A stretch of 64,000 nucleotides of DNA from Faecousia sp. (GTDB lineage Bacteria; Bacillota; Clostridia; Oscillospirales; Oscillospiraceae). Positions within the stretch are counted from its first letter, which is position 1. Each line of letters begins with the position of its first letter. The position numbers and the translations under genes were made by a program. The notes under the pieces were generated by a model. It worked only from the letters and a program-made list of their open reading frames with translations. It searched no databases and was not told the origin of the DNA. The stretch covers positions 4,516 to 68,515 of the forward strand of contig JBGVON010000052.1 in the NCBI GenBank assembly GCA_045126495.1, read 5' to 3'. Below, piece by piece: positions 3 to 59,259 of this stretch.

Positions 3-791
3 ATTGGGATCGACAGAGACCCGGTGGCATTGCAGGCGGCAGCAGAGCGCTTGACGCCTTATATGGATCGGGTCACATTGGTGCATTCCAATTTCTGCGA
101 AATGGCGCAGGCGGTGAAAGACCTGGGTCTTTCCGGTGTGGATGGCATCCTGCTGGATCTGGGGGTTTCTTCTCCCCAGTTAGACGATGCGGAGCGTGGC
201 TTTTCTTATATGGCAGACGCCCCTTTGGATATGCGCATGAACGGCGAGGATACTTTGACCGCCTTCGCAGTTGTGAATACTTGGTCCTATGAGGAATTGA
301 AACGGATCCTCTTTGATTATGGCGAGGAACGGTACGCCCCCCGCATTGCCGCGGCGATCTGCCGCAGGCGGGAAGAAAAATCCATCAGCACCACTTTGGA
401 ACTGGCGGATATTATCCGTTCTGCCATGCCACCTCAGGCGCTGCGGGAAAAGCAGCACCCGGCAAAGCGGAGCTTTCAGGCGATCCGCATCGCGGTCAAT
501 GATGAGCTTGGTTCCGTGGAACGGGCCATGGAGGCGGCGATCCCCCTGCTGAATCCCGGCGGTCGGCTGGCGGTCATTACTTTCCATTCTTTGGAAGACA
601 GGATTGTGAAAAATGCTATGGCAGAGGCAGCGAAGGGCTGCACCTGTCCTCCCAGCTTCCCGGTGTGTGTCTGCGGAAAGAAGCCTTTGGTGAAGCTGAT
701 CAGCCGCAAACCCATCGTGGCAAGCGATGTAGAATTAGAAGCAAATCCCCGTTCCCGCAGCGCAAAACTGCGGGTGTGTGAGAAAATATAA
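3..791 (+). CDS. rsmH: 16S rRNA m4C1402 methyltransferase, 5'-truncated by the window edge
   Basis: Frame open from base 3 (IGIDRDPVAL). Motifs DLGVSSPQLD, RGFSY..DAPLDMRM, ITFHSLEDRIVK, NPRSRSAKLR. First gene of the dcw cluster. Confidence 0.96.
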   Translation: MGIDRDPVALQAAAERLTPYMDRVTLVHSNFCEMAQAVKDLGLSGVDGILLDLGVSSPQLDDAERGFSYMADAPLDMRMNGEDTLTAFAVVNTWSYEELKRILFDYGEERYAPRIAAAICRRREEKSISTTLELADIIRSAMPPQALREKQHPAKRSFQAIRIAVNDELGSVERAMEAAIPLLNPGGRLAVITFHSLEDRIVKNAMAEAAKGCTCPPSFPVCVCGKKPLVKLISRKPIVASDVELEANPRSRSAKLRVCEKI

Positions 792-811
792 AAGTAAAGG
801 AGCAGGCGGTT

Positions 812-1276
812 ATGGCGCAGGGTGTTAACGTCCAGTATGTGCAATTTTATACACAGGGCAGCGCGGCGCGTCGTGTGCTGCCTGCGATCTCTACATATTT
901 CCGCCCGCTGCCTCAGATTCGGAAGCGGAAAGTCCGACGGATCTGCGTAGATCCGGTGGCACTTCTGGGAACAGCGGTGGCGGTGTGTATGCTGGTTATG
1001 ATGGCGGTTGGTGTGAGCCAATTGCGCACCGAGCAGCAGGAAAGCGCTGCTATGACAGAATATGTGCAGCGCTTGGAATTTGAAAACCGGCATTTGCAGG
1101 CAGAGTATGCCGCGTCCTGCGATCTGGAAGCGGTGGAAAAGACCGCGCTGGCGCTGGGCATGATCCCGCAGGAGCAAGCAACTCACACAGTGATTGCAGT
1201 AGAACCCCCGCAGGTGCAGGAATCTGTAACCCTGTGGAACCGGATCGGAATATTTTTGACGGGCTTGTTTGCATAA
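812..1276 (+). CDS. FtsL-like cell division protein
   Basis: Basic N-terminus, one TM helix, coiled coil, DLEAVEKTALALGM motif. Lies between rsmH and the PBP, with an AAGGAG RBS. Confidence 0.65.
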   Translation: MAQGVNVQYVQFYTQGSAARRVLPAISTYFRPLPQIRKRKVRRICVDPVALLGTAVAVCMLVMMAVGVSQLRTEQQESAAMTEYVQRLEFENRHLQAEYAASCDLEAVEKTALALGMIPQEQATHTVIAVEPPQVQESVTLWNRIGIFLTGLFA

Positions 1277-1312
1277 TACATGGTCCTGCCAATACACTTG
1301 AATAAGGCTGCG

Positions 1313-1347
1313 ATGGGCGGCGAGGGATTCCCTTGCTGCCCATTTTT
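1313..1347 (+). terminator. Intrinsic terminator-like hairpin between ftsL-like and PBP genes
   Basis: ATGGGCGGCGAGGGA-T-TCCCTTGCTGCCCAT (two G-U pairs), running into TTTTT. Confidence 0.55.
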
Positions 1348-1365
1348 AGGAAAGGTCGGAGTGTA

Positions 1366-3696
1366 ATGGCAAAGGAAATGAAAAAACGGGAGTATAACCG
1401 CATCCGTAAGGATACCGGTCAGCACCGGCGGATCACATGGACGGCTTTGTTTTTGGGGATTTTGGCATTTATCCCGGTCATCGTGCAGCTTTTTGGTCTT
1501 ATGGTCAGAGATTACGATTATTACGCCCGGCTGGCGCTGCGGAATCAGACCCGCACCACCCGGGTCACAGGGGACAGGGGCGTGATCTACGACCGGAATA
1601 TGAACATTCTTGCCACTTCCCAAAGTGTGGAGAATGTGTATTTAGACCCTCATGAGTTAAAACAATCCAAAGCAGATATCCAAGCCATTGCCCAAACCTT
1701 GGGGCAGATCCTGCAACTGGACGCCCAATGGATCGCCCAGCAGGCAAAGGATACCAAAATGCGGTACAAGCAGATCGCTGCGAGGGTTGATGAGGAGACC
1801 GCAGGGCAGATCCGCAGCTATATTAACCAGCAAAAGATCTCCGGCATCCATTTGGAACCCAATTCTCAGCGCTATTATCCCTATGGAAGTCTTGCTGCGC
1901 AGGTAATTGGCTTTACCAACGCCTCCAATACGGGATCTGAGGGGATAGAAGCGGCGTATAACAGTTATTTGGAAGGTTCAACGGGCAGTGTCATCACCAC
2001 CAAGGGCAATAATGAGATGGATATGCCCTTTTCTTATGAACATTACACCGCCTCAAAGCAGGGAAACAGCGTGGTGCTTACCTTAGATACTACGGTACAG
2101 GCATGCTTAGAAAAGCAGATGGAAGCGGCAATTGCCCGGTATGATGTGCAAAACGGCGCTTTTGGCATGGTGATGAATGTCAATACCGGGGAGATCCTTG
2201 CTATGGCGACCCTGGGCAGCTATGACCCCAATAACTATCTGGAAGTGCAGGACGCTGAGACTGCCTATGAGCTGGAAAAACTGCGCGCCCAGTATCTTAT
2301 GTATCCGGAGTCCTCACAGGCATTTTTAGACGGACAGACCACCTATAAACAGGCGCTGAATGCTGCCCGCTTGAAGCAATGGCGAAACCGGTGTATCTCC
2401 GATGGTTATGAGCCCGGCTCAACCTTTAAGGTAATGACCATGGCAGCGGCGCTGGATTGCGGCGCCATTGACTTGGAAACCAATTTTTCATGCAGCGGCG
2501 CTGAGCAGATCCCCGGCCGCGCCCAACGGCTGCATTGCTGGCGTTCAACCGGTCACGGCGCCCAAAAAACCCCACAGGCGTTGCAGAATTCCTGCAACCT
2601 TGCCTTTGCCCATATCGCACTGAAATTGGGCGGGCAGCGCTTTTATGAATATGTGGAACAGTTTGGCATTTTGGAAAAGACGGGACTGGATCTGGCGGGG
2701 GAGAGCAAGGGTGTGTTCTTTTCCAAAGAACTGGTCACTGATACAGATAAATGGGGCACTGCCTCGTTGACCTCCGGTTCTTTCGGTCAGACCTTTAAGC
2801 TGACCCCCTTGCAGCTGGTGCGGGGGATCGCCGCGGTGGTAAACGGCGGATACCTGCTGGAACCTTACCTGGTCAGTCAGGTAATTGATGCAGATGGAAA
2901 TACTGTCTTGCAGCAGGAGCCTACCGTTTTGCGGCAGGTGATCCGGGAGGAAACCTCCAAAACCATGTGCAGCCTTATGCAGTCGGTGGTAGAAGAGGGA
3001 ACGGCAAAAAATGCTCAGGTTGCAGGTTTTGCTATCGGCGGCAAGACCGGTACCAGCGAGAAGATCGACGTGTTTGATGATAACGGTCAGCGGGTGCAGG
3101 ATAAAATTGTATCCTTTGTAGGGGTTGCGCCTATGGATGATCCGGAGTATATTGTACTTGTAGCTTTGGACACCCCCTCCCGCAGTACCGGGATCTATAT
3201 TTCCGGCGGTGTCATGGCTGCGCCTACGGTAGGCGCGGTGATGGCGGATATCCTGCCTTATCTGGAAGTGAAACGCAACTGGACAGAGGAAGATGCGGCA
3301 GGCAGAGAAGTGACGGTGGAGGATTTCACCGGACTGACGTTGAAAGAAGCGCAGACGCAATTGAAGGCCATGGGTCTGTCCGCAGAGACTGTGGGCACAG
3401 GAGATACCGTCACCGCCCAGATCCCCATGGCGGGGAATGTGGTGCCGGGGAACAGTCAGGTGCTGTTATATCTGGGTGAAGAACCGGAAGCGCGGTATGT
3501 CACCGTCCCGGATTTTACAGGCATGACCCGTCAGCAGGCAAGTGATGCCGCAGGGCTTTTGGGTCTGTACATTTTGGTGACCGGAAATGATGCCATGGAT
3601 GCATTGGTCACCGCACAATCTTATACAAAAGATACACAGGTTCCCGTGGGAACGACAATAAAATTGGAGTTTGCCGATACCAAGGCAGCGGATTAA
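1366..3696 (+). CDS. Class B penicillin-binding protein (FtsI/SpoVD family) with two C-terminal PASTA domains
   Basis: N-terminal TM, RG.IYDRN dimerisation motif, EPGSTFK (SxxK), SCN, KTGT, two VPDF/VEDF-type PASTA repeats. Confidence 0.92.
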   Translation: MAKEMKKREYNRIRKDTGQHRRITWTALFLGILAFIPVIVQLFGLMVRDYDYYARLALRNQTRTTRVTGDRGVIYDRNMNILATSQSVENVYLDPHELKQSKADIQAIAQTLGQILQLDAQWIAQQAKDTKMRYKQIAARVDEETAGQIRSYINQQKISGIHLEPNSQRYYPYGSLAAQVIGFTNASNTGSEGIEAAYNSYLEGSTGSVITTKGNNEMDMPFSYEHYTASKQGNSVVLTLDTTVQACLEKQMEAAIARYDVQNGAFGMVMNVNTGEILAMATLGSYDPNNYLEVQDAETAYELEKLRAQYLMYPESSQAFLDGQTTYKQALNAARLKQWRNRCISDGYEPGSTFKVMTMAAALDCGAIDLETNFSCSGAEQIPGRAQRLHCWRSTGHGAQKTPQALQNSCNLAFAHIALKLGGQRFYEYVEQFGILEKTGLDLAGESKGVFFSKELVTDTDKWGTASLTSGSFGQTFKLTPLQLVRGIAAVVNGGYLLEPYLVSQVIDADGNTVLQQEPTVLRQVIREETSKTMCSLMQSVVEEGTAKNAQVAGFAIGGKTGTSEKIDVFDDNGQRVQDKIVSFVGVAPMDDPEYIVLVALDTPSRSTGIYISGGVMAAPTVGAVMADILPYLEVKRNWTEEDAAGREVTVEDFTGLTLKEAQTQLKAMGLSAETVGTGDTVTAQIPMAGNVVPGNSQVLLYLGEEPEARYVTVPDFTGMTRQQASDAAGLLGLYILVTGNDAMDALVTAQSYTKDTQVPVGTTIKLEFADTKAAD

Positions 3697-3707
3697 GGAG
3701 ATTCGTT

Positions 3708-5162
3708 ATGAAATTAAAGCAGTTGCTTGCGGATGTGAGCGTCATCAAGTCCAATGTATCCATGGATACGGATATTCCGGCGGTGGTCTATGATTCCCGT
3801 CAGGTAACTCCCGGCTGCGTGTTTGTTGCCATTACAGGCTTTGCCACCGATGGCAATAAGTATATCCCCATGGCGCTGGAAAAGGGCGCCGCGGTGGTAG
3901 TGACCGCCCAGTCCCAGCCGGACACCGTTCCCCATGTGCAGGTGACATCCGACCGCTTGGCATTGGCGCAGATCGGCAGCAATTTCTTTGACCACCCGGG
4001 TAAAGCCATGAAGCTCATCGGCATTACCGGTACCAACGGTAAAACCTCTTCCACGTTGCTGTTAAAGCACATTTTGGAACAGGTGCTGGGGGCGAAGGTT
4101 GGCTTGGTGGGCACCATGGGTAATATGATCGGCGATATGCCCATTCCTGGTGACCGTACCACTCCGGAGAGTTTTGCTTTGCAGGAATTACTGGCCCGGA
4201 TGCGAGATGCAAATTGCACCCATGTGATCATGGAGGTGTCCTCCCACGCCATTGCGCTGGACAGAGTGGCGGGACTGCACTATACTGTGGCAGCATTTAC
4301 CAATCTGACAGAGGATCATCTGGATTTTCACAAAACCATGGAAAACTATTGCGATACCAAGGCAGAACTGTTCCGGCGCTGCGATAAAGCGGTAATTAAC
4401 CGGGATGATGCCTGGTTTGAGCGGATTACCCAAAATGTATCCTGTGAAGCGATTACCACCTCCGTAAAGGGCAGGGGAAGTCTATGCGCAGAGAAGCTGG
4501 AACTGCTCTCCGATGGCGTTTCTTTTGCGGTAACCTATGGAGCGGAACAGGCGCAGGTGTACCTGCCCATTCCCGGCAAGTTTTCTGTTTATAATGCGCT
4601 GACCGCCTTGGGCTGCGCTATGGAGCTGGGCATTTCCCTCACCGATGCGGCCCAAGCTCTGAAAACCGCCAAGGGTGTTAAGGGCAGGGTGGAGGTAGTC
4701 CCCACCCCCGGCAAAGATTACACGGTGCTGATCGATTACGCCCATACCCCCGACGGCTTGGAAAATGTCCTTTCTTCTGTAAAGGGTTATTGCAAGGGAC
4801 GTTTGATCGCGGTGTTTGGCTGCGGCGGCGACCGGGATCCGGTGAAGCGGCCTATTATGGGCAGAATCGGTGTGGAGCTTGCTGACTATGCCATCATTAC
4901 CTCGGATAATCCCCGTACAGAAGAACCGGGAAAAATCATACAGGATATCCTAAAAGGGGTAGATTCGTCAAAAAATAACTATGAAGTTTTGGAAAATCGC
5001 CCAAAAGCTATCGAACATGCTATGGACATTGCCGAAAAGAATGATATAATAGTATTGGCTGGAAAAGGCCATGAAACTTATCAGGAGATTTGCGGCGTGA
5101 AGCACCATCTGGATGAGCGTGAGGTGGTGGCTGCTTATCTGGCGAAATCGAGGAACGGATAA
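3708..5162 (+). CDS. murE: UDP-MurNAc-dipeptide--meso-DAP ligase
   Basis: GITGTNGKTSS, TTPES, MEVSSH, IDYAHTPD, and DNPR (meso-DAP specificity motif). Confidence 0.96.
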   Translation: MKLKQLLADVSVIKSNVSMDTDIPAVVYDSRQVTPGCVFVAITGFATDGNKYIPMALEKGAAVVVTAQSQPDTVPHVQVTSDRLALAQIGSNFFDHPGKAMKLIGITGTNGKTSSTLLLKHILEQVLGAKVGLVGTMGNMIGDMPIPGDRTTPESFALQELLARMRDANCTHVIMEVSSHAIALDRVAGLHYTVAAFTNLTEDHLDFHKTMENYCDTKAELFRRCDKAVINRDDAWFERITQNVSCEAITTSVKGRGSLCAEKLELLSDGVSFAVTYGAEQAQVYLPIPGKFSVYNALTALGCAMELGISLTDAAQALKTAKGVKGRVEVVPTPGKDYTVLIDYAHTPDGLENVLSSVKGYCKGRLIAVFGCGGDRDPVKRPIMGRIGVELADYAIITSDNPRTEEPGKIIQDILKGVDSSKNNYEVLENRPKAIEHAMDIAEKNDIIVLAGKGHETYQEICGVKHHLDEREVVAAYLAKSRNG

Positions 5163-6523
5163 TGGGTAGAATAACATTACAGCAGGCCGCCCTTTGGTGC
5201 GGCGGTCGGGTGGATCCCAAATATCAGGATATTACTTTTTTTGGCGCTAACAACGACAGCAGGAAGTTGGAGGCCGGTCAGCTTTTTGTTGCCTTGCATG
5301 GGCAGCGGGACGGACATGACTTTATCCCGGTTGCTTTGGAAAAGGGCGCGGCGGCGGTGCTTTGTACCCATTGTGACGGGGACTATCCCGCTATCGTGGT
5401 GGAGGATACCCGTGTGGCTTTGGGTCAGATCGCCCGTGGCGAGCGGGCACGGCTGGGTATAAAGGTTGTAGGCATTACCGGCTCTGTGGGCAAAAGCACC
5501 ACCAAGGAGATGGTTGCTTCTGTCCTTGGCAGTGTCTACCGTGTGGCAAAGACCCCGGAAAATCATAATAATGATATCGGCATGCCCATGGCGATCTTGG
5601 GTATACCGGAGGACACCCAAATCGCGGTGCTGGAAATGGGCATGAACCACTTTGGCGAGATTGCCTACCTTACCAATATTGCCCGTCCGGACATTGCGGT
5701 GATCACCAATATTGGTTCGGTGCACATTGAGCATTTAGGCTCTGTGGAGGGCGTTTTGCGGGCGAAGCTGGAAATTCTGGATGGCATGCCCCAAGACGGC
5801 ACGGTGATCTTCAATGGTGATGATGCTCTGCTGTGGAATCTGCGGCAGACCTTGGATAAAAAGATGGTCTATTTTGGCGTGCGGAATCCGGAATGCGGAA
5901 TGCTGGGCAGTGGGGTCACCCCAAAAGAGGGAAGTTTGTCCTTTCACGTGCAGTGTTCTGGCCAGTCCTTTGATTTGTCGCTGCCCATAGAGGGCGAGCA
6001 CTATGTCCATGATGCGCTGGCTGCGGTGGCTGTGGGCTTTCAATTGGACGTCCCGGCAGAAAAGATCCGCAGTAGCCTGTCCCGCTTTCAGAATATGGCG
6101 GGGCGGCAGGAGATCTACGAAAAAAACGGCTTTACCATTATTCAAGACTGCTACAATGCCGGTCCTGAGTCCATGACTGCCGCGCTGACGGTGCTGGGCA
6201 GCCGTACCGGACGCCGTGTGGCGATTCTGGGGGATATGTTGGAACTGGGTGTGTGTGCCGATGCGGAGCACTATAAGATCGGTCGGGTGGCTGCAAAAAA
6301 TGCAGACATGCTTCTTGCCTATGGACCGAAAAGTGAGCGGATGCTCTACGGTGCTATTACCGGTGGTATGTCTCAGAACAGCGCAAGGGCGTTTACCGAC
6401 AGGGATAAATTATCGGAAGTGCTGAAACAGATCGCAAAACCCGGAGATATCCTGCTGTTTAAGGGAAGCGCGGGTATGCGAATGCAGTTGGTGCTGGACC
6501 GGTTTTTGGAAGATACCAAGTAA
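5162..6523 (+). CDS. murF: UDP-MurNAc-tripeptide--D-Ala-D-Ala ligase
   Basis: GITGSVGKSTTKE, NNDIGMP, LEMGMNH.GEI, DCYNA.P.SM, GDMLELG. Confidence 0.96.
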   Translation: MGRITLQQAALWCGGRVDPKYQDITFFGANNDSRKLEAGQLFVALHGQRDGHDFIPVALEKGAAAVLCTHCDGDYPAIVVEDTRVALGQIARGERARLGIKVVGITGSVGKSTTKEMVASVLGSVYRVAKTPENHNNDIGMPMAILGIPEDTQIAVLEMGMNHFGEIAYLTNIARPDIAVITNIGSVHIEHLGSVEGVLRAKLEILDGMPQDGTVIFNGDDALLWNLRQTLDKKMVYFGVRNPECGMLGSGVTPKEGSLSFHVQCSGQSFDLSLPIEGEHYVHDALAAVAVGFQLDVPAEKIRSSLSRFQNMAGRQEIYEKNGFTIIQDCYNAGPESMTAALTVLGSRTGRRVAILGDMLELGVCADAEHYKIGRVAAKNADMLLAYGPKSERMLYGAITGGMSQNSARAFTDRDKLSEVLKQIAKPGDILLFKGSAGMRMQLVLDRFLEDTK

Positions 6524-7534: not shown

Positions 7535-8707
7535 GTGGCATTGCAGAAATCTCTGTATGCCAAAGAGAACCGCCGTCTGATGAAAAAGCAGACGGGCGAA
7601 GGTGTGGACCTTGTATTTTTGCTGCTTTTACTGCTTGTGCTGACTGTGGGGCTCATTATGCTCTATTCGGCAAGCTATGCCCAAAGCGAATACGATACCG
7701 GCTATACCCAATCCACCCGCTACCTGCAAAAACAGGGACTGTGCGCGCTGATTGGCTTGGGCGCCATGATGATCCTCAGTCGTATTCCACCGGAGTTTTG
7801 GCTGCGATGGGCGTGGGTGCTTTACGGTGTCAGCATTGTTCTTTTGCTGTGCGTGCTGGTGTTTGGGCAGTCCGTTAACGGCGCCAGACGGTGGATCAAT
7901 ATTGCAGGCTTGCAGTTTCAACCCTCGGAGATCGCCAAGTTCACTATGATCGTCCTCTTTGCCAAGCTGACCCGGGATTTTGGGAAGCAGGCGCGGCAGT
8001 TCCGCCGGGGCGTGTTGGGGTTTGGCGCGGCGCTATTGGGCATTCTTGTGCCTCTGGCGCTGGAAAAGCACCTGTCTGCCATTATGCTGATGGGCATGGT
8101 GGCGGTGGTGATGATGTTCATTGCCGGTACCCACCCCAAATGGCTGCTGGCAGGGGCAGGGGCAGCAGTGGTGTTCGTGGCGGTGTATGTAAGCCTCATG
8201 GGCTACGCCGGTGATCGGGTGACCGCATGGCTGCACCCGGAGCAGGATCCCTCGGATACCGGCTATCAGATCCTGCAATCCCTCTATGCCATTGGTTCCG
8301 GGGGGTTGTTTGGCTTAGGCTTGGGTAAGAGCAGACAGAAATATCTGTACTTACCCTTTCAGTATAACGACTATATTTTCGCTATCATTTGCGAGGAACT
8401 TGGCCTTGTGGGCGCGGCGCTGATCATCGTACTGTTCGGCGCGTTGATCCTGCGGGGTTACCGGATTGCCCTTTATGGGGGTAGCCGGTTCCGGACGGTT
8501 CTGGGTGCGGGACTGATTACCCTGATCGCTGTCCAGACCATTTTGAATTTATGTGTTGTGACCAATCTGCTGCCCTCTACCGGCATTGCACTGCCTTTCT
8601 TTTCCTATGGAGGGACGGCGTTGGCAGTGAATCTGGGGGAGATGGGGATCGTGCTGAGCATATCCCGTTACCGGAACCAATCGGCACAACAGGAGGAAAC
8701 CTTATGA
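7535..8707 (+). CDS. ftsW: SEDS-family peptidoglycan polymerase FtsW/SpoVE
   Basis: GARRWI, QPSEIAK, GYQ..QS..AIGSGG, DYIF.II.EELG, PFFSYGG. Position upstream of murG. Confidence 0.9.
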   Translation: MALQKSLYAKENRRLMKKQTGEGVDLVFLLLLLLVLTVGLIMLYSASYAQSEYDTGYTQSTRYLQKQGLCALIGLGAMMILSRIPPEFWLRWAWVLYGVSIVLLLCVLVFGQSVNGARRWINIAGLQFQPSEIAKFTMIVLFAKLTRDFGKQARQFRRGVLGFGAALLGILVPLALEKHLSAIMLMGMVAVVMMFIAGTHPKWLLAGAGAAVVFVAVYVSLMGYAGDRVTAWLHPEQDPSDTGYQILQSLYAIGSGGLFGLGLGKSRQKYLYLPFQYNDYIFAIICEELGLVGAALIIVLFGALILRGYRIALYGGSRFRTVLGAGLITLIAVQTILNLCVVTNLLPSTGIALPFFSYGGTALAVNLGEMGIVLSISRYRNQSAQQEETL

Positions 8708-15383: not shown

Positions 15384-15459
15384 GGGAGCATAGCTCAGCT
15401 GGGAGAGCATCTGCCTTACAAGCAGGAGGTCACAGGTTCGAGCCCTGTTGTTCCCACCA
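15384..15459 (+). tRNA. tRNA-Val(TAC)
   Basis: 76-nt cloverleaf, anticodon loop CTTACAA, T-loop TTCGAGC, encoded CCA. Confidence 0.97.
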
Positions 15460-15464
15460 TATTT

Positions 15465-15541
15465 GGCCCGGTGGTGCAGTCGGTTAGCACGCCAGCCTGT
15501 CACGCTGGAGGTCGACGGTTCGAGTCCGTTCCGGGTCGCCA
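15465..15541 (+). tRNA. tRNA-Asp(GTC)
   Basis: 77-nt cloverleaf, anticodon loop CTGTCAC, G73, encoded CCA. Confidence 0.97.
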
Positions 15542-15578
15542 CATAACTTTGAGCAGAGCACTTGCTCTGCTCATATAT

Positions 15579-15654
15579 GCCTCTGTAGCTCAGTTGGTAG
15601 AGCAGTGGACTGAAAATCCACGTGTCGTTGGTTCGATTCCGACCGGAGGCACCA
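15579..15654 (+). tRNA. tRNA-Phe(GAA)
   Basis: 76-nt cloverleaf, anticodon loop CTGAAAA, encoded CCA. Confidence 0.97.
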
Positions 15655-15768
15655 CATAATTCTTGGTTCCTGAATTGGAATCGAAAGGCGGCTCTTGGCA
15701 ATATGCCGGTGGCATATTGCAACCGCCGTGGCTTTTCCGCAGAAAAGCGATTCCGACCGGAGGCACCA
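15655..15768 (+). repeat. tRNA-Phe-linked mirror element (114-bp period)
   Basis: 15748-15768 is an exact copy of tRNA 15634-15654 (C56 to CCA). 15664-15685 is a decayed antisense copy of the tRNA 3' end. Internal hairpins at 15698-15720 and 15732-15747. Confidence 0.88.
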
Positions 15769-15807
15769 CTTTTCTAAGCATAGGTCCTTGTGTACAGGGG
15801 CCAATAT

Positions 15808-15883
15808 GCGGGTGTAGCTCATCTGGTAGAGCGCCACCTTGCCAAGGTGGAGGTAGCGAGTTCGAGCCTCGTCACCCGCTCCA
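15808..15883 (+). tRNA. tRNA-Gly(GCC)
   Basis: 76-nt cloverleaf, anticodon loop TTGCCAA, U73, encoded CCA. Confidence 0.97.
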
Positions 15884-16021
15884 ATTATTTAACCCGAGCC
15901 AATGGGCTCGAAAGATATGATCCAATAGTCCTGTGGACTGTTGATCGCGACGGCTTGACGGAGCGATTCCGTAATTTTGCGTTAGCAAAAAGCAAACGAG
16001 CCTCGTCACCCGCTCCAATTA
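15884..16021 (+). repeat. tRNA-Gly-linked mirror element (134-bp period)
   Basis: 15997-16021 is an exact 25-nt copy of 15863-15887 (C56 to CCA plus ATTA). Antisense GGCTCGAA at 15905-15912. Hairpins at 15923-15943, 15946-15965, 15975-15990. Confidence 0.88.
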
Positions 16022-16060
16022 AATAGGATAGGAACGCTTAGCGTTCCTGTTTTCATAAAT

Positions 16061-16135
16061 GGTACCGTGGCCAAGCGGTAAGGCAAGAGTCTGCAAAACT
16101 CTCATTCCCCAGTTCAAATCTGGGCGGTACCTCCA
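16061..16135 (+). tRNA. tRNA-Cys(GCA)
   Basis: 75-nt cloverleaf, anticodon loop CTGCAAA, U73, encoded CCA. Confidence 0.97.
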
Positions 16136-16172
16136 AAAATAACGGATACCCATTTGGGTGTCCGTTATTTTT
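16136..16172. terminator. Bidirectional terminator after tRNA-Cys
   Basis: AAAATAACGGATACCC-ATTT-GGGTGTCCGTTATTTT, with A and T tracts on both sides. Confidence 0.8.
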
Positions 16173-16298
16173 ATGTATGTCCAGATTTGAATAATGTAAA
16201 TGCAACGCGGACGAGCGTTGCCCGCACCGGCTGGACGGTGCGGAACCTTAATTTTTGCCTTTGGCAAAAATGCAAACAAATCTGGGCGGTACCTACCA
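16136..16298 (+). repeat. tRNA-Cys-linked mirror element (162-bp period)
   Basis: 16277-16294 is an exact copy of 16115-16132, followed by ACCA. Antisense ...CCAGATTTGAA at 16172-16191. Hairpins at 16202-16221, 16222-16243, 16252-16270. Confidence 0.88.
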
Positions 16299-16355
16299 AA
16301 ATCTCGCATGTGTTAGTGAATCACAACTTATTGGGAGAAACGTGCAGAGCTTTTT

Positions 16356-17501
16356 CTATTTTTGGTATGATACGCGGCGGTCTTCTTCTTGATAGGGTGC
16401 TTCCGGTCCGGTTTTGCAGAATAGACTGTAAAGCCGTTCTGCCCGGGATTCCAAATCCTGATATGGGTGTTCAACAGGTGCGCCTGCGTTGGGGAAACAC
16501 CCTGTTTCTCGGGCAATTTTTAAGATCTGCCGACCGGTATCGTTAAAAGCCAGAACGCGCGCATAAGGGGCAGGGGAGGTGATATCCTTTTCTGTGATTC
16601 CTAAAAACGCGCACATCACCATCCGGTCCAGCCGGGTTCGGGTGTAACGCTTGGATTTGGTAGCATTCAAGATGTTGGAAAGGGTACTCTGGGTTCTGGC
16701 GTTGCGCATCAGTTTTCGCCAAAGTCCCTCACTGCCGTAGGGCAGGGATTCAAATTCATTGTCTGTCATGGTACGCAGTCGGTATAGTATCGCCTGCTCG
16801 CCGAAGGGCAGATCGTGGAGGGGCGCACCGGAAAAAATCGATCTTGCATCTTCCGGCACATACGCAAGCCAATCTCTGTCGGAAAGCATGCTGTTTCTTA
16901 TGGCAGTGGCGGAGGGATTCTCGGAGTCAATGACCTGATCGTGATACCCTCCGTTTCGCTGAATGACCATTGGCTCCATGGGAACACCCGATTGCAGAAT
17001 CGCCTTGCAATACTCAGTTGCCAAAATATCATTGGGGTGAGTAAGGGTATCTGTATCAAGGCCCATTGCTTTCAGCGCGGCTAGCCTTGCAGCAGGAAAA
17101 GATTGCCCCTTGTCCAGTTCAACCCGCAGCATTTGGGGAAATGTGGGATCCAGTAGCGCCCTTGCGGTGTAAAGCAACGTATCTTCGTTACCACTTTCCG
17201 CGCCAAAACACAATCGTTGACAGAATCCGCCAAGAATCCGCACCCCTTCCCTGGCAAAGCCTTCGGCAGAGGAAAGCGCGGCTGTGATGGGTAATTCCAG
17301 CACCAGATCTGCACCGCATAGGATTGCAGCCCGTGCACGAAGAGATTTATCAATAATGGCGGGCATACCCCGCTGCACATAATTTCCACTCATCAGACAC
17401 ACAATACCGCCATCAGGATCAGCGGATTTTACTGCATCTAATTGCTTTTTGTGTCCCGCGTGCAGGGGATTATACTCACAAATAATGCCTGTGACCTTCA
17501 A
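16356..17501 (-). CDS. tmcAL: tRNA(Met) cytidine acetate ligase (HIGH-type nucleotidyltransferase)
   Basis: GIICEYNPLHAGH, MSGNYVQRG.P, PNDILA.EY, SATAIR, SKRYT.TR. TTG start after AGGAGG. Adjacent to ackA. Confidence 0.85.
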   Translation of the reverse strand: MKVTGIICEYNPLHAGHKKQLDAVKSADPDGGIVCLMSGNYVQRGMPAIIDKSLRARAAILCGADLVLELPITAALSSAEGFAREGVRILGGFCQRLCFGAESGNEDTLLYTARALLDPTFPQMLRVELDKGQSFPAARLAALKAMGLDTDTLTHPNDILATEYCKAILQSGVPMEPMVIQRNGGYHDQVIDSENPSATAIRNSMLSDRDWLAYVPEDARSIFSGAPLHDLPFGEQAILYRLRTMTDNEFESLPYGSEGLWRKLMRNARTQSTLSNILNATKSKRYTRTRLDRMVMCAFLGITEKDITSPAPYARVLAFNDTGRQILKIARETGCFPNAGAPVEHPYQDLESRAERLYSLFCKTGPEAPYQEEDRRVSYQK

Positions 17502-17538
17502 AATGCCCCTCCTTTGCAAAAAAAAATCATGATAGGGG

Positions 17539-59033: not shown

Positions 59034-59034
59034 T

Positions 59035-59183
59035 TGGTGGACCTGATCGGATTCGTTTAATCAATGTTCGCCTCCGTCAAGCCGTCGGCGGTAACGCTCG
59101 TCCGCATTACATTTGTACTTTCGAATCCGCTCGGCACAAATATCGTACCAATAAAAGACCACCCTAAAAGGGTGGTCTTTTAT
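59035..59183 (-). repeat. tRNA-Ala-linked mirror element (149-bp period)
   Basis: 59035-59055 is an exact copy of 59184-59204 (C56 to CCA on the minus strand). Inverted T-loop copy at 59120-59129. Core 59059-59114 is 43/56 identical to 16198-16253. Confidence 0.9.
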
Positions 59184-59259
59184 TGGTGGACCTGATCGGA
59201 TTCGAACCGACGACCCCCACAATGCGAATGTGATGCGCTCCCAACTGCGCTACAGGCCC
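59184..59259 (-). tRNA. tRNA-Ala(CGC)
   Basis: 76-nt cloverleaf on the minus strand, anticodon loop TTCGCAT, G3:U70 alanine determinant, encoded CCA. Confidence 0.96.

Follow-up and report, generated by a model that had tools for sequence, protein, structure and literature searches.

Small insertion units that encode no protein lie at the 3′ ends of transfer RNA (tRNA) genes in Faecousia sp. Each unit has a folded core under structural selection and an address-like antisense arm that matches its host tRNA, and the units stack in tandem and can bring cargo genes with them. The window analyzed here is a 64,000-nucleotide stretch of this genome (GenBank assembly GCA_045126495.1, contig JBGVON010000052.1, here C52), taken from a 1.76-Mb, 103-contig assembly that has 50.6% G+C and is 91% complete. 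In a preliminary description of the window, a 56-nt segment (16198–16253) had been flagged as a hairpin core shared between distant copies, and its structure was proposed to be selected and modular, as for a protein-recognized single-stranded DNA or RNA element rather than decaying island debris. This segment lies between tRNA-Cys and a duplicate of the 3′ end of tRNA-Cys. With about even confidence, the core is interpreted here as the center of a miniature integrative cassette that encodes no protein, has the T-loop of tRNA genes as its target, and is moved in trans, with the folded single strand serving as the recombination site.

The flagged core and its copies in the window

ARAGORN places a tRNA array (Val-Asp-Phe-Gly-Cys) at 15384–16135 on the plus strand and a solitary tRNA-Ala(CGC) at 59184–59259 on the minus strand. 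At gathering thresholds, Rfam finds the array tRNAs, tRNA-Ala, and one glycine riboswitch in the window and nothing else, and a permissive Rfam 15 scan of 15640–16320, carried up to E = 10, gave no credible match. Behind tRNA-Phe, -Gly, -Cys, and -Ala, the last 18–25 bases of the gene recur exactly or near-exactly 93–141 nt downstream. The relations between copies that had been described from the letters alone are borne out. The Cys core is identical to the Ala core (59059–59114, minus strand) at 43 of 56 ungapped positions; the next-best ungapped match to the Cys 56-mer anywhere in the window, on both strands, is 32/56. Hairpin A reads GCAACGC-GGACGA-GCGTTGC in Cys and GTAATGC-GGACGA-GCGTTAC in Ala, which corresponds to one compensatory change from C-G to T-A and one T·G wobble. 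In hairpin B (CCGCACCG-GCTGGA-CGGTGCGG in Cys and CGCCGACG-GCTTGA-CGGAGGCG in Ala), two pairs are swapped, and two Watson–Crick pairs of Cys are a tandem G·A/A·G in Ala. Likewise, the 16-mer CGACGGCTTGACGGAG is common to Gly (15948) and Ala (59087, minus strand), the alternative hairpin A is present in Phe (15699) and Gly (15923), and the third hairpin was located in Cys, Gly, and Phe (Table 1). As single-stranded DNA, the Cys element is predicted to fold into a four-way junction made of a closing stem and three hairpins (−32.3 kcal/mol, z = −6.8), with none of 200 shuffles folding equally well. The predicted folds of the Phe, Gly, and Ala copies also beat those of their shuffles.

Architecture and boundaries of the units

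In total, 178 copies were gathered, and they lie behind at least 30 host tRNA species. These units share one order. The tRNA is followed by an optional terminator composed of an A-tract, a hairpin, and a T-tract, and then by the antisense arm, in which the T-loop and the T-stem 3′ strand of this tRNA appear as their reverse complement. Next come a 6–8 nt linker ending in AAAT, hairpin A (two types), hairpin B (several types, one of which carries the tandem G·A/A·G), an optional A/T-rich hairpin C, and a right end, ...AAAATGCAAA, which leads into a duplicate of the tRNA 3′ end beginning at C56. A trailer, a terminator, or cargo genes may be placed between the tRNA 3′ end and the antisense arm, and the element itself measures ~95–165 nt. 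On one strand, the antisense arm and the duplicate are predicted to pair and thereby close a four-way junction around the three hairpins.

The antisense arm is tightly delimited. Across 104 copies, it is complementary to tRNA positions 54–62 in at least 89% of copies, and at most of these positions in at least 98%. Position 63 is matched in 75%, positions 64–65 in 58–59%, position 53 in 57%, and position 52 in 44%, and complementarity beyond positions 52–65 is at chance level. The arm also matches the variable T-loop positions of each host tRNA, and in a copy from Eggerthellaceae (L090) a T-to-C change in the duplicate is matched by an A-to-G change in the arm. The boundaries of the units are equally sharp: for pairs of units with 90–92% identical cores at different tRNAs, similarity ends just 5′ of AAATGCAAC and exactly at the C56 junction. 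At the right junction, no T-stem 5′ half is found beside the crossover.

Direct repeats of 18–63 nt are present at every unit. The repeat begins at C56 in all 82 copies measured, with T55 also shared in 32 of them. Short repeats (20–26 nt) end at CCA or a few bases beyond, and long repeats (53–63 nt) end exactly where the terminator T-tract ends; one genome (G036) has a perfect 54-nt repeat. The terminators behind some pairs are diverged yet homologous, as for Pro(GGG) with 83% identity and compensatory changes, which suggests that long repeats decay into short ones. An origin of the antisense arm as part of a long palindrome, by snap-back, was considered and set aside. It fits a few copies, such as L053, and does not fit the youngest, the Ser_cga copy of G036, in which the perfect 54-nt repeat is accompanied by an antisense arm of only 12 nt.

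Selection on structure

To follow the stems through the family, 123 copies were aligned with a covariance model; as the copies are related to one another and were fitted to the structure when aligned, the resulting counts overstate independence. Hairpin A is paired in 99.2% of cells, with both sides changing in eight of nine pairs, and the closing stem is paired in 88.3% of cells, with both sides changing in nine of ten. None of 500 shuffles reached the observed values, and sliding the partners by 1–3 columns reduced pairing to 35–40%. A second count was made using an alignment-free hairpin finder that penalizes G·T and A·C equally. It yielded 1180 Watson–Crick and 12 non-Watson–Crick pairs in 36 distinct stems of hairpin A, 880 and 29 in 72 stems of hairpin B, and 775 and 14 in 53 stems of hairpin C (97–99% Watson–Crick). 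Stems that are highly variable in sequence are thus almost perfectly paired, in support of the proposal that the structure is selected. Decay of stems at the rate of loops, named beforehand as the outcome that would speak against selection, is not what is seen: stems change often and pairing is kept. The modular character also holds, as the types of hairpins A and B and the presence or absence of hairpin C combine in many ways. Finally, the sharp and constant boundaries, the range of host tRNA species, the occurrence in 35 of 40 congeners, and the empty orthologous sites in relatives are not those of decaying island debris.

It had also been suggested that the relative tolerance of G·T and A·C would reveal the active strand. 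In the closing stem, read on the tRNA-sense strand, G·T outnumbers A·C by 91 to 36, although the covariance model may slightly favor G·U in the alignment; because of this excess, the closing stem probably forms on the tRNA-sense strand. In hairpins A–C, by comparison, 23 G·T and 15 A·C were counted among ~2,900 pairs, a difference that is not significant, and both strands are predicted to fold equally well. Structured RNAs are normally rich in G·U pairs. Since G·T is here as rare as A·C, the hairpins look like DNA hairpins or the product of a strand-symmetric constraint, and are more DNA-like than RNA-like.

Distribution and history of the family

Faecousia, a genus of the Oscillospiraceae, is known from gut metagenome-assembled genomes of humans and ruminants, and all genomes of the genus used here are metagenome-assembled and incomplete. 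In the genome that contains the window, 13 of 43 tRNA genes are followed by a duplicate of their own 3′ end. A core profile search of this genome finds ~27 copies, nearly all directly behind a tRNA 3′ end, with tandem doubles behind tRNA-Gly(CCC) and tRNA-Arg(TCT). A covariance model built on 26 of the copies in this genome detects 1–22 copies in 35 of 40 sampled Faecousia genomes; in 150 genomes from other genera of the order, weak matches only are obtained, in nine.

Comparison with relatives indicates the direction of change. Seven congeners have compact Val-Asp-Phe-Gly-Cys arrays that lack the Phe and Gly inserts: the Phe-Gly gap is 3–35 nt in these genomes versus 153 nt here, and the Gly-Cys gap is 37–55 nt versus 177 nt. 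In addition, the conserved native trailer hairpin of tRNA-Gly sits after the duplicate in this genome. The compact arrays and the displaced trailer hairpin show that the Phe and Gly inserts are insertions. The inserted block is either the segment from C56 to the core, placed in the T-loop, or the segment from the spacer to the duplicate, placed just past the tRNA; due to the repeat, these two readings look identical. Cores are not grouped by tRNA, as the nearest core in another genome is at the same tRNA in 23 of 145 cases, several of which are one record fetched twice. The family has thus changed tRNA targets many times, and no recent burst is seen.

Outside the genus, a degenerate hairpin A pattern, which favors one hairpin A type, was searched for in one genome per species and returned at least 120 loci. 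Faecousia or other Oscillospiraceae predominate among the matches listed. Hairpin A in the same tRNA-tail layout occurs in Eggerthellales, Atopobiaceae, Coriobacteriaceae, Acutalibacteraceae, Vescimonas, and Margulisiibacteriota, and a match to the motif alone was found in the cultured isolate Gordonibacter sp. 28C. In Negativicutes, hairpin A lies behind 5S ribosomal RNA (rRNA) genes together with antisense and sense pieces of the 5S 3′ region. In metagenome-assembled genomes of Anaerovibrio and Veillonellaceae (L125:~1–340, L131:~1–330, and L146:~1–190), the 5S 3′ region is partly repeated, hairpin A lies within this incomplete second copy, and a 13-nt segment antisense to 5S helix IV comes before the hairpin.

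No copy was found in the phage and plasmid collections searched, and six matches on viral contigs resemble host flanks. One 30.9-kb viral contig has a unit consisting of a terminator, an antisense arm, a hairpin A core, and a tRNA-like duplicate (L210:1080–2900) right after the stop codon of a 531-residue large serine recombinase.

Cargo and tandem cassettes

Some cores are separated from their tRNA by genes, at distances of 0.9–7 kb, and cores also form arrays. Behind tRNA-Arg(CCG) in L044, a core is followed by genes that Pfam assigns to two C5 methylases, a HaeIII-type nuclease, and Shedu SduA, and then by a second core. This 4.7-kb two-core cassette (L044:2114–6170, from G041:C44) combines restriction-modification and Shedu genes. 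In L055, tRNA-Ser(GCT) is followed by a core, about seven open reading frames (ORFs), and another core, and in L045 the order is tRNA-Thr, core, tRNA-Tyr, core, two ORFs, core, one ORF, core. Cargo in the genome containing the window includes an amidohydrolase and LarC. For these distal cores, the antisense arm and the duplicate derive from one and the same tRNA.

Cargo-bearing units often have iterated copies of GCACCCCC (five) or TTTAACGA (four) just upstream of the terminator, followed by the common motif TTGTATCAAAAT. These iteron-like motifs are located at G000:C25:~8150–8330, at G000:C50:~2860–3020, at ~30–190 on the minus strand of L210, and in L157.

Search for a cognate enzyme

No recombinase was found inside any of the ~180 units examined, and the Pfam-annotated cargo held none. 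A tblastn search of all eight tyrosine recombinases of the genome against all loci returned unrelated islands only, and the clusters obtained from ORFs near cores contained only housekeeping genes such as ABC transporters and RluA-type synthases. The eight tyrosine recombinases comprise two Xer-like proteins and six of phage type or of the type found in integrative and conjugative elements (ICEs); two of these six adjoin tRNA-Ala genes. This genome also encodes one Y1 protein resembling transposases associated with repetitive extragenic palindromic (REP) sequences (RAYTs), one IS110 fragment, and one small resolvase. A reverse transcriptase (PF00078) was not found in the 91%-complete genome. 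An IS91-type Y2 transposase was likewise not found, although that search is equally silent in control genomes and so does not show absence. A search of the element and genome for a dif-like site gave nothing convincing, and the right end, ...ATGYAAAC, was judged too weakly similar to a XerD arm to be used.

Several neighboring genes were considered as partners and rejected. The RAYT-like gene has different REP-like repeats of its own (GGGCGAACACAGTTCGCCCCTAC, G000:C31:4421–4897) that bear no relation to the hairpins of the units. Of the 41 genus genomes sampled, 23 have Y1 transposase genes, none of them linked to a core, and an IS200 copy near a core in G036 (G036:C59) is a separate element with other hairpins. 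The integrase island beside a core in L162 and L124 belongs to a separate element that entered the anticodon-loop region of tRNA-Val and has a 47-nt direct repeat of its own. This element (L162:4698–7545 and L124:~1200–4150), which encodes a cI-like helix-turn-helix protein, a G2P-type rolling-circle Rep, and a 310-residue tyrosine integrase, is inserted in tRNA-Val(GAC) upstream of a pre-existing tRNA-tail unit. In the window, the 387-residue ORF beside the Cys copy (16356–17519, minus strand) was considered as an integrase and rejected, as it is a TmcAL-type HIGH nucleotidyltransferase (HIGH_NTase1) of the tRNA-Met cytidine acetate ligase family. No strain-level empty Cys site was recovered when metagenomes were scanned for the Cys flank, and the metagenome contigs over this region, which are dominated by the tRNAs of other organisms, included no excised form and no pair of empty and occupied sites.

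Coordinates and other tRNA-tail repeats

Table 1 Features of the Cys unit and of the three other copies in the window; hairpins and the closing stem are predicted folds.
Feature	Coordinates	Strand	Source	Remarks
tRNA-Cys(GCA), host gene of the flagged copy	16061..16135	+	ARAGORN, Rfam tRNA	
Bidirectional terminator (A-tract, 18-bp hairpin, T-tract), tRNA-to-core spacer	16135..16172	+	repeat search	
Antisense T-arm (rcT)	16181..16191	+		exact reverse complement of tRNA-Cys positions 54–64; pairs with 16277–16287 to form closing stem P1
Hairpin A, type 1	16202..16221	+		7-bp stem, loop GGACGA
Hairpin B	16222..16243	+		8-bp stem, loop GCTGGA
Hairpin C	16251..16271	+		9-bp A/T-rich stem
Conserved right end, ...AAAATGCAAA	16272..16276	+		abuts C56 of the duplicate
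Direct duplicate of the tRNA-Cys 3′ end from C56	16277..16294	+		past a one-base insertion runs on to ~16303
Phe copy	15655..15769	+		rcT 15677–15685; hairpin A 15698–15720, on an outer stem (15687–15691 with 15723–15727); third hairpin 15732–15747; duplicate 15748–15769
Gly copy	15884..16021	+		rcT 15904–15912; hairpins A 15923–15943, B 15944–15967, C 15975–15990; duplicate 15997–16021
Ala copy, behind tRNA-Ala(CGC) 59184–59259	59034..59183	−		terminator 59150–59184; rcT 59120–59129; hairpins A 59091–59110 and B 59069–59090, no hairpin C; duplicate 59034–59055

Other repeats with a related layout were observed at tRNA genes. A second, G+C-rich repeat of ~115 nt flanks tRNA-Leu(CAA) at L035:3407–3522 and 3722–3836 (G000:C88:4906–5021 and 5221–5335). 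Its upstream copy is preceded by a duplicate of the tRNA 5′ end (GCCGGTGTGATGG), and its downstream copy has the tRNA 3′ end in antisense on one side and a 10-nt duplicate of the acceptor end on the other. The same repeat recurs in many genomes of the genus, and there are hybrid units in which it is fused to the main family's antisense arm. In G028, which belongs to another family of the order, three tandem units behind tRNA-Cys (L012:~560–1210, minus strand) are without the core of hairpins A, B, and C. Each has a terminator, a small antisense/sense hairpin with the loop TTCA, and a diverged 3′-end duplicate, a minimal version of the layout. Behind tRNA-Thr(GGT), an insert at G000:C88:8273–8450 has a 32-nt duplicate from the T-stem 5′ side and the antisense of the T-stem 5′ strand; this insert could be a classical attR or represent a further family.

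A proposed single-strand site moved in trans

The reading favored here is that of a recombination site formed by one folded strand and acted on by an enzyme supplied in trans. It is preferred because the order of parts resembles that of CTXphi and because cargo, site, array, and a putative trans-acting enzyme are combined as in integrons. In this mechanism, the unit would move as a circle, and its closing stem would mimic the target T-loop and T-stem in their double-stranded form. Hairpin A, which keeps its sequence across phyla, would be the handle for the trans-acting enzyme, either a tyrosine recombinase or an HUH nuclease from the host or a helper element. This enzyme would exchange one strand between T55 and C56, with replication then fixing the insertion in the manner of CTXphi attP(+) or integron attC. 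The tRNA would stay intact since the unit supplies its own copy of the 3′ end.

The similarity to CTXphi-type integrative mobile elements exploiting Xer (IMEXs) lies in two inverted target-like sites ~100 nt apart at one end of the integrated element, in one strand folding into a mimic of the chromosomal site (predicted here, with 88% pairing and covariation between arm and duplicate), and in the lack of an integrase, CTXphi being recombined by host XerCD. A single strand exchange fixed by replication would yield exactly the order found here. Unlike in those elements, the target is the tRNA T-loop and not dif, no dif-like site is recognizable in the element, a conserved three-hairpin junction separates the arms, and units of ~100 nt contain no phage genes. 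Integron attC sites share with the units promoter-less cargo followed by an imperfect hairpin site of ~60–140 nt with structure conserved over sequence, as well as inverse core and core sites split by the insertion, tandem arrays, defense cargo, and a trans-acting recombinase, which for the units would be such an enzyme as proposed above. They differ in that the stems here are perfect and have no extrahelical bases or conserved bulges, and in that the crossover is TT↓C and not G↓TT. The arms here read ...TCGAA(CC) / CGAAT... and are tRNA-specific, in contrast to the R''/R' motifs RYYYAAC / GTTRRRY; each site also has a tRNA-specific antisense arm, there is no attI, and the arrays are at many tRNA genes. 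Among further systems, the bridge (seek) RNAs of IS110/IS1111 also have a target-complementary address within the element beside structured loops. However, the units have no DEDD recombinase (the genome holds a fragment only), their address is a plain antisense arm and not a pair of internal loops, and their direct repeats are long. The units resemble each of the known families compared here in part and agree with none in full. No Rfam family was found for the element, and full-text searches, which covered the motif itself, returned no description of it.

A number of observations weigh against a single-strand site. No circle, excision junction, or enzyme has been seen, the integron integrase (IntI, TIGR02249) exceeds its curated cut-off in none of 41 genomes of the genus (the matches are Xer-like C-terminal regions), and Xer-like genes occur in genomes that lack the element as well as in carriers. 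The antisense arm always holds the complement of T54 and T55, which are absent from the duplicate. The repeats have two kinds of right end, one at or near CCA and the other precisely where the terminator T-tract stops, which is suggestive of an RNA template or of a second cut whose position varies. Within a genome, copies at different tRNAs are at most 88% identical, with no sign of recent movement. Lastly, cores that are 90–92% identical are found at different tRNAs, in each case beside an antisense arm and a duplicate that fit the tRNA concerned, and a simple model of a carried attP does not explain these matched flanks without compensatory change after each jump. T-arms differ by only 2–4 bases, so that a jump could be followed by compensatory change in the arm; the alternative is that the flanks are copied from the target.

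Copying from the target is central to an RNA-mediated route, in which the antisense arm of a core RNA pairs with the T-arm of the tRNA or pre-tRNA, the stretch of this tRNA or pre-tRNA from C56 to the 3′ end is joined to the core, and the chimera is reverse-transcribed and recombined into the tRNA gene. This route is kept alive by the coincidence of the repeat ends with RNA 3′ ends (the left edge is fixed at C56 and the right edge is at CCA or the T-tract end) and by the matched flanks of near-identical cores, which copying a target RNA easily explains. The arm moreover has the polarity of a cDNA and matches variable T-loop positions. On balance the route is unlikely, given that no reverse transcriptase was found in the 91%-complete genome, the rarity of G·U-type pairs in the three hairpins, the terminators between tRNA and core, the lack of an Rfam match even at permissive thresholds, and the kilobases of cargo that some units enclose. 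Conventional integration of double-stranded DNA would instead make the units cis-mobilizable remnants, like cis-mobilizable elements (CIMEs), of islands with T-loop-class tyrosine integrases, with the core as an attP arm only. Direct repeats that start in the T-loop and rebuild the tRNA to its 3′ end, tandem accretion, and accessory cargo such as defense genes are classic for tRNA-integrating islands, and the genome does have six phage- or ICE-type tyrosine recombinases, two of them beside tRNA-Ala genes. This explanation is considered unlikely. There is no integrase in or beside the units, the sole integrase island beside a core being the separate tRNA-Val insertion, and minimal units are only ~100 nt long. 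Where the arms are bound by protein as duplex DNA, compensatory changes in three hairpins and a tRNA-matched arm are not expected; one hairpin is also conserved across phyla, and the T-stem 5′ half is absent beside the crossover at the right junction.

A third route, quite unlikely in our estimation, is the peel-and-paste transposition of IS200/IS605 elements by a Y1 HUH transposase, which would make the unit a tRNA-addressed palindrome-associated transposable element (PATE) or REP-like element, with the antisense arm as an extended cleavage-site guide, hairpin A as the left end, and hairpin C as the right end. It overlaps with the reading favored here but names an enzyme class and implies no strand exchange by a recombinase. 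PATEs and the REP/RAYT system are similarly protein-less, hairpin-based, and active as single strands, with a guide 5′ of a hairpin that base-pairs with the target. The geometry of the right end (a hairpin, 6–10 nt, and then the junction), the pairing of the guide 5′ of hairpin A with bases 5′ of the cut (TT↓C), the perfect stems expected of DNA hairpins, and the Y1 genes in over half of the sampled genus genomes are consistent with this route. Arguing against it, the only Y1 gene of the genome is RAYT-like and flanked by different repeats, the IS200 copy in G036 is separate, and no matching Y1 enzyme is linked to the units; several element-rich genomes are without Y1 genes, though these are incomplete metagenome assemblies. 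Known guides are 4–5 nt and not 10–13 nt as here, and IS200/IS605 elements make no direct repeats, whereas every unit here has one. That the cores are non-mobile cis-elements of tRNA operons (terminators, processing signals, or antisense regulators) spread by duplication is highly improbable. Their constant place directly behind tRNA genes, the working-looking terminators of many, and copies within tRNA operons that have no terminator would suit such a role; homologous cores behind at least 30 unrelated tRNA species, empty sites in close relatives, copy numbers from 0 to 28 within one genus, and enclosed cargo genes would not.

Implications for tRNA-linked islands

tRNA genes are the classic landing pads of genomic islands, and the accepted agents are island-borne integrases. 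The units described here show the footprints of islands (a rebuilt tRNA 3′ end, stacking, and defense cargo) yet carry no enzyme and shrink to ~100 nt. Since Gordonibacter sp. 28C, which carries the hairpin A motif, is a cultured isolate, a bench test is feasible. Should the fold prove to be the recombination site, Firmicutes and Actinobacteria would have a single-strand pathway akin to that of integrons or CTX, which would help to explain the movement of small defense islets. A broader proposal, possible if doubtful, is that the units represent a cross-phylum, integrase-less cassette system addressed by nucleic acid, in which a folded module of ~100 nt, inserted by an enzyme of the host or a helper, lands with its cargo, restriction-modification and Shedu genes included, behind almost any tRNA or 5S rRNA gene, leaves the gene undamaged, and has its address and spare 3′ end rewritten at each jump. 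If the address is indeed rewritten in this way, the family would be a natural programmable insertion system.

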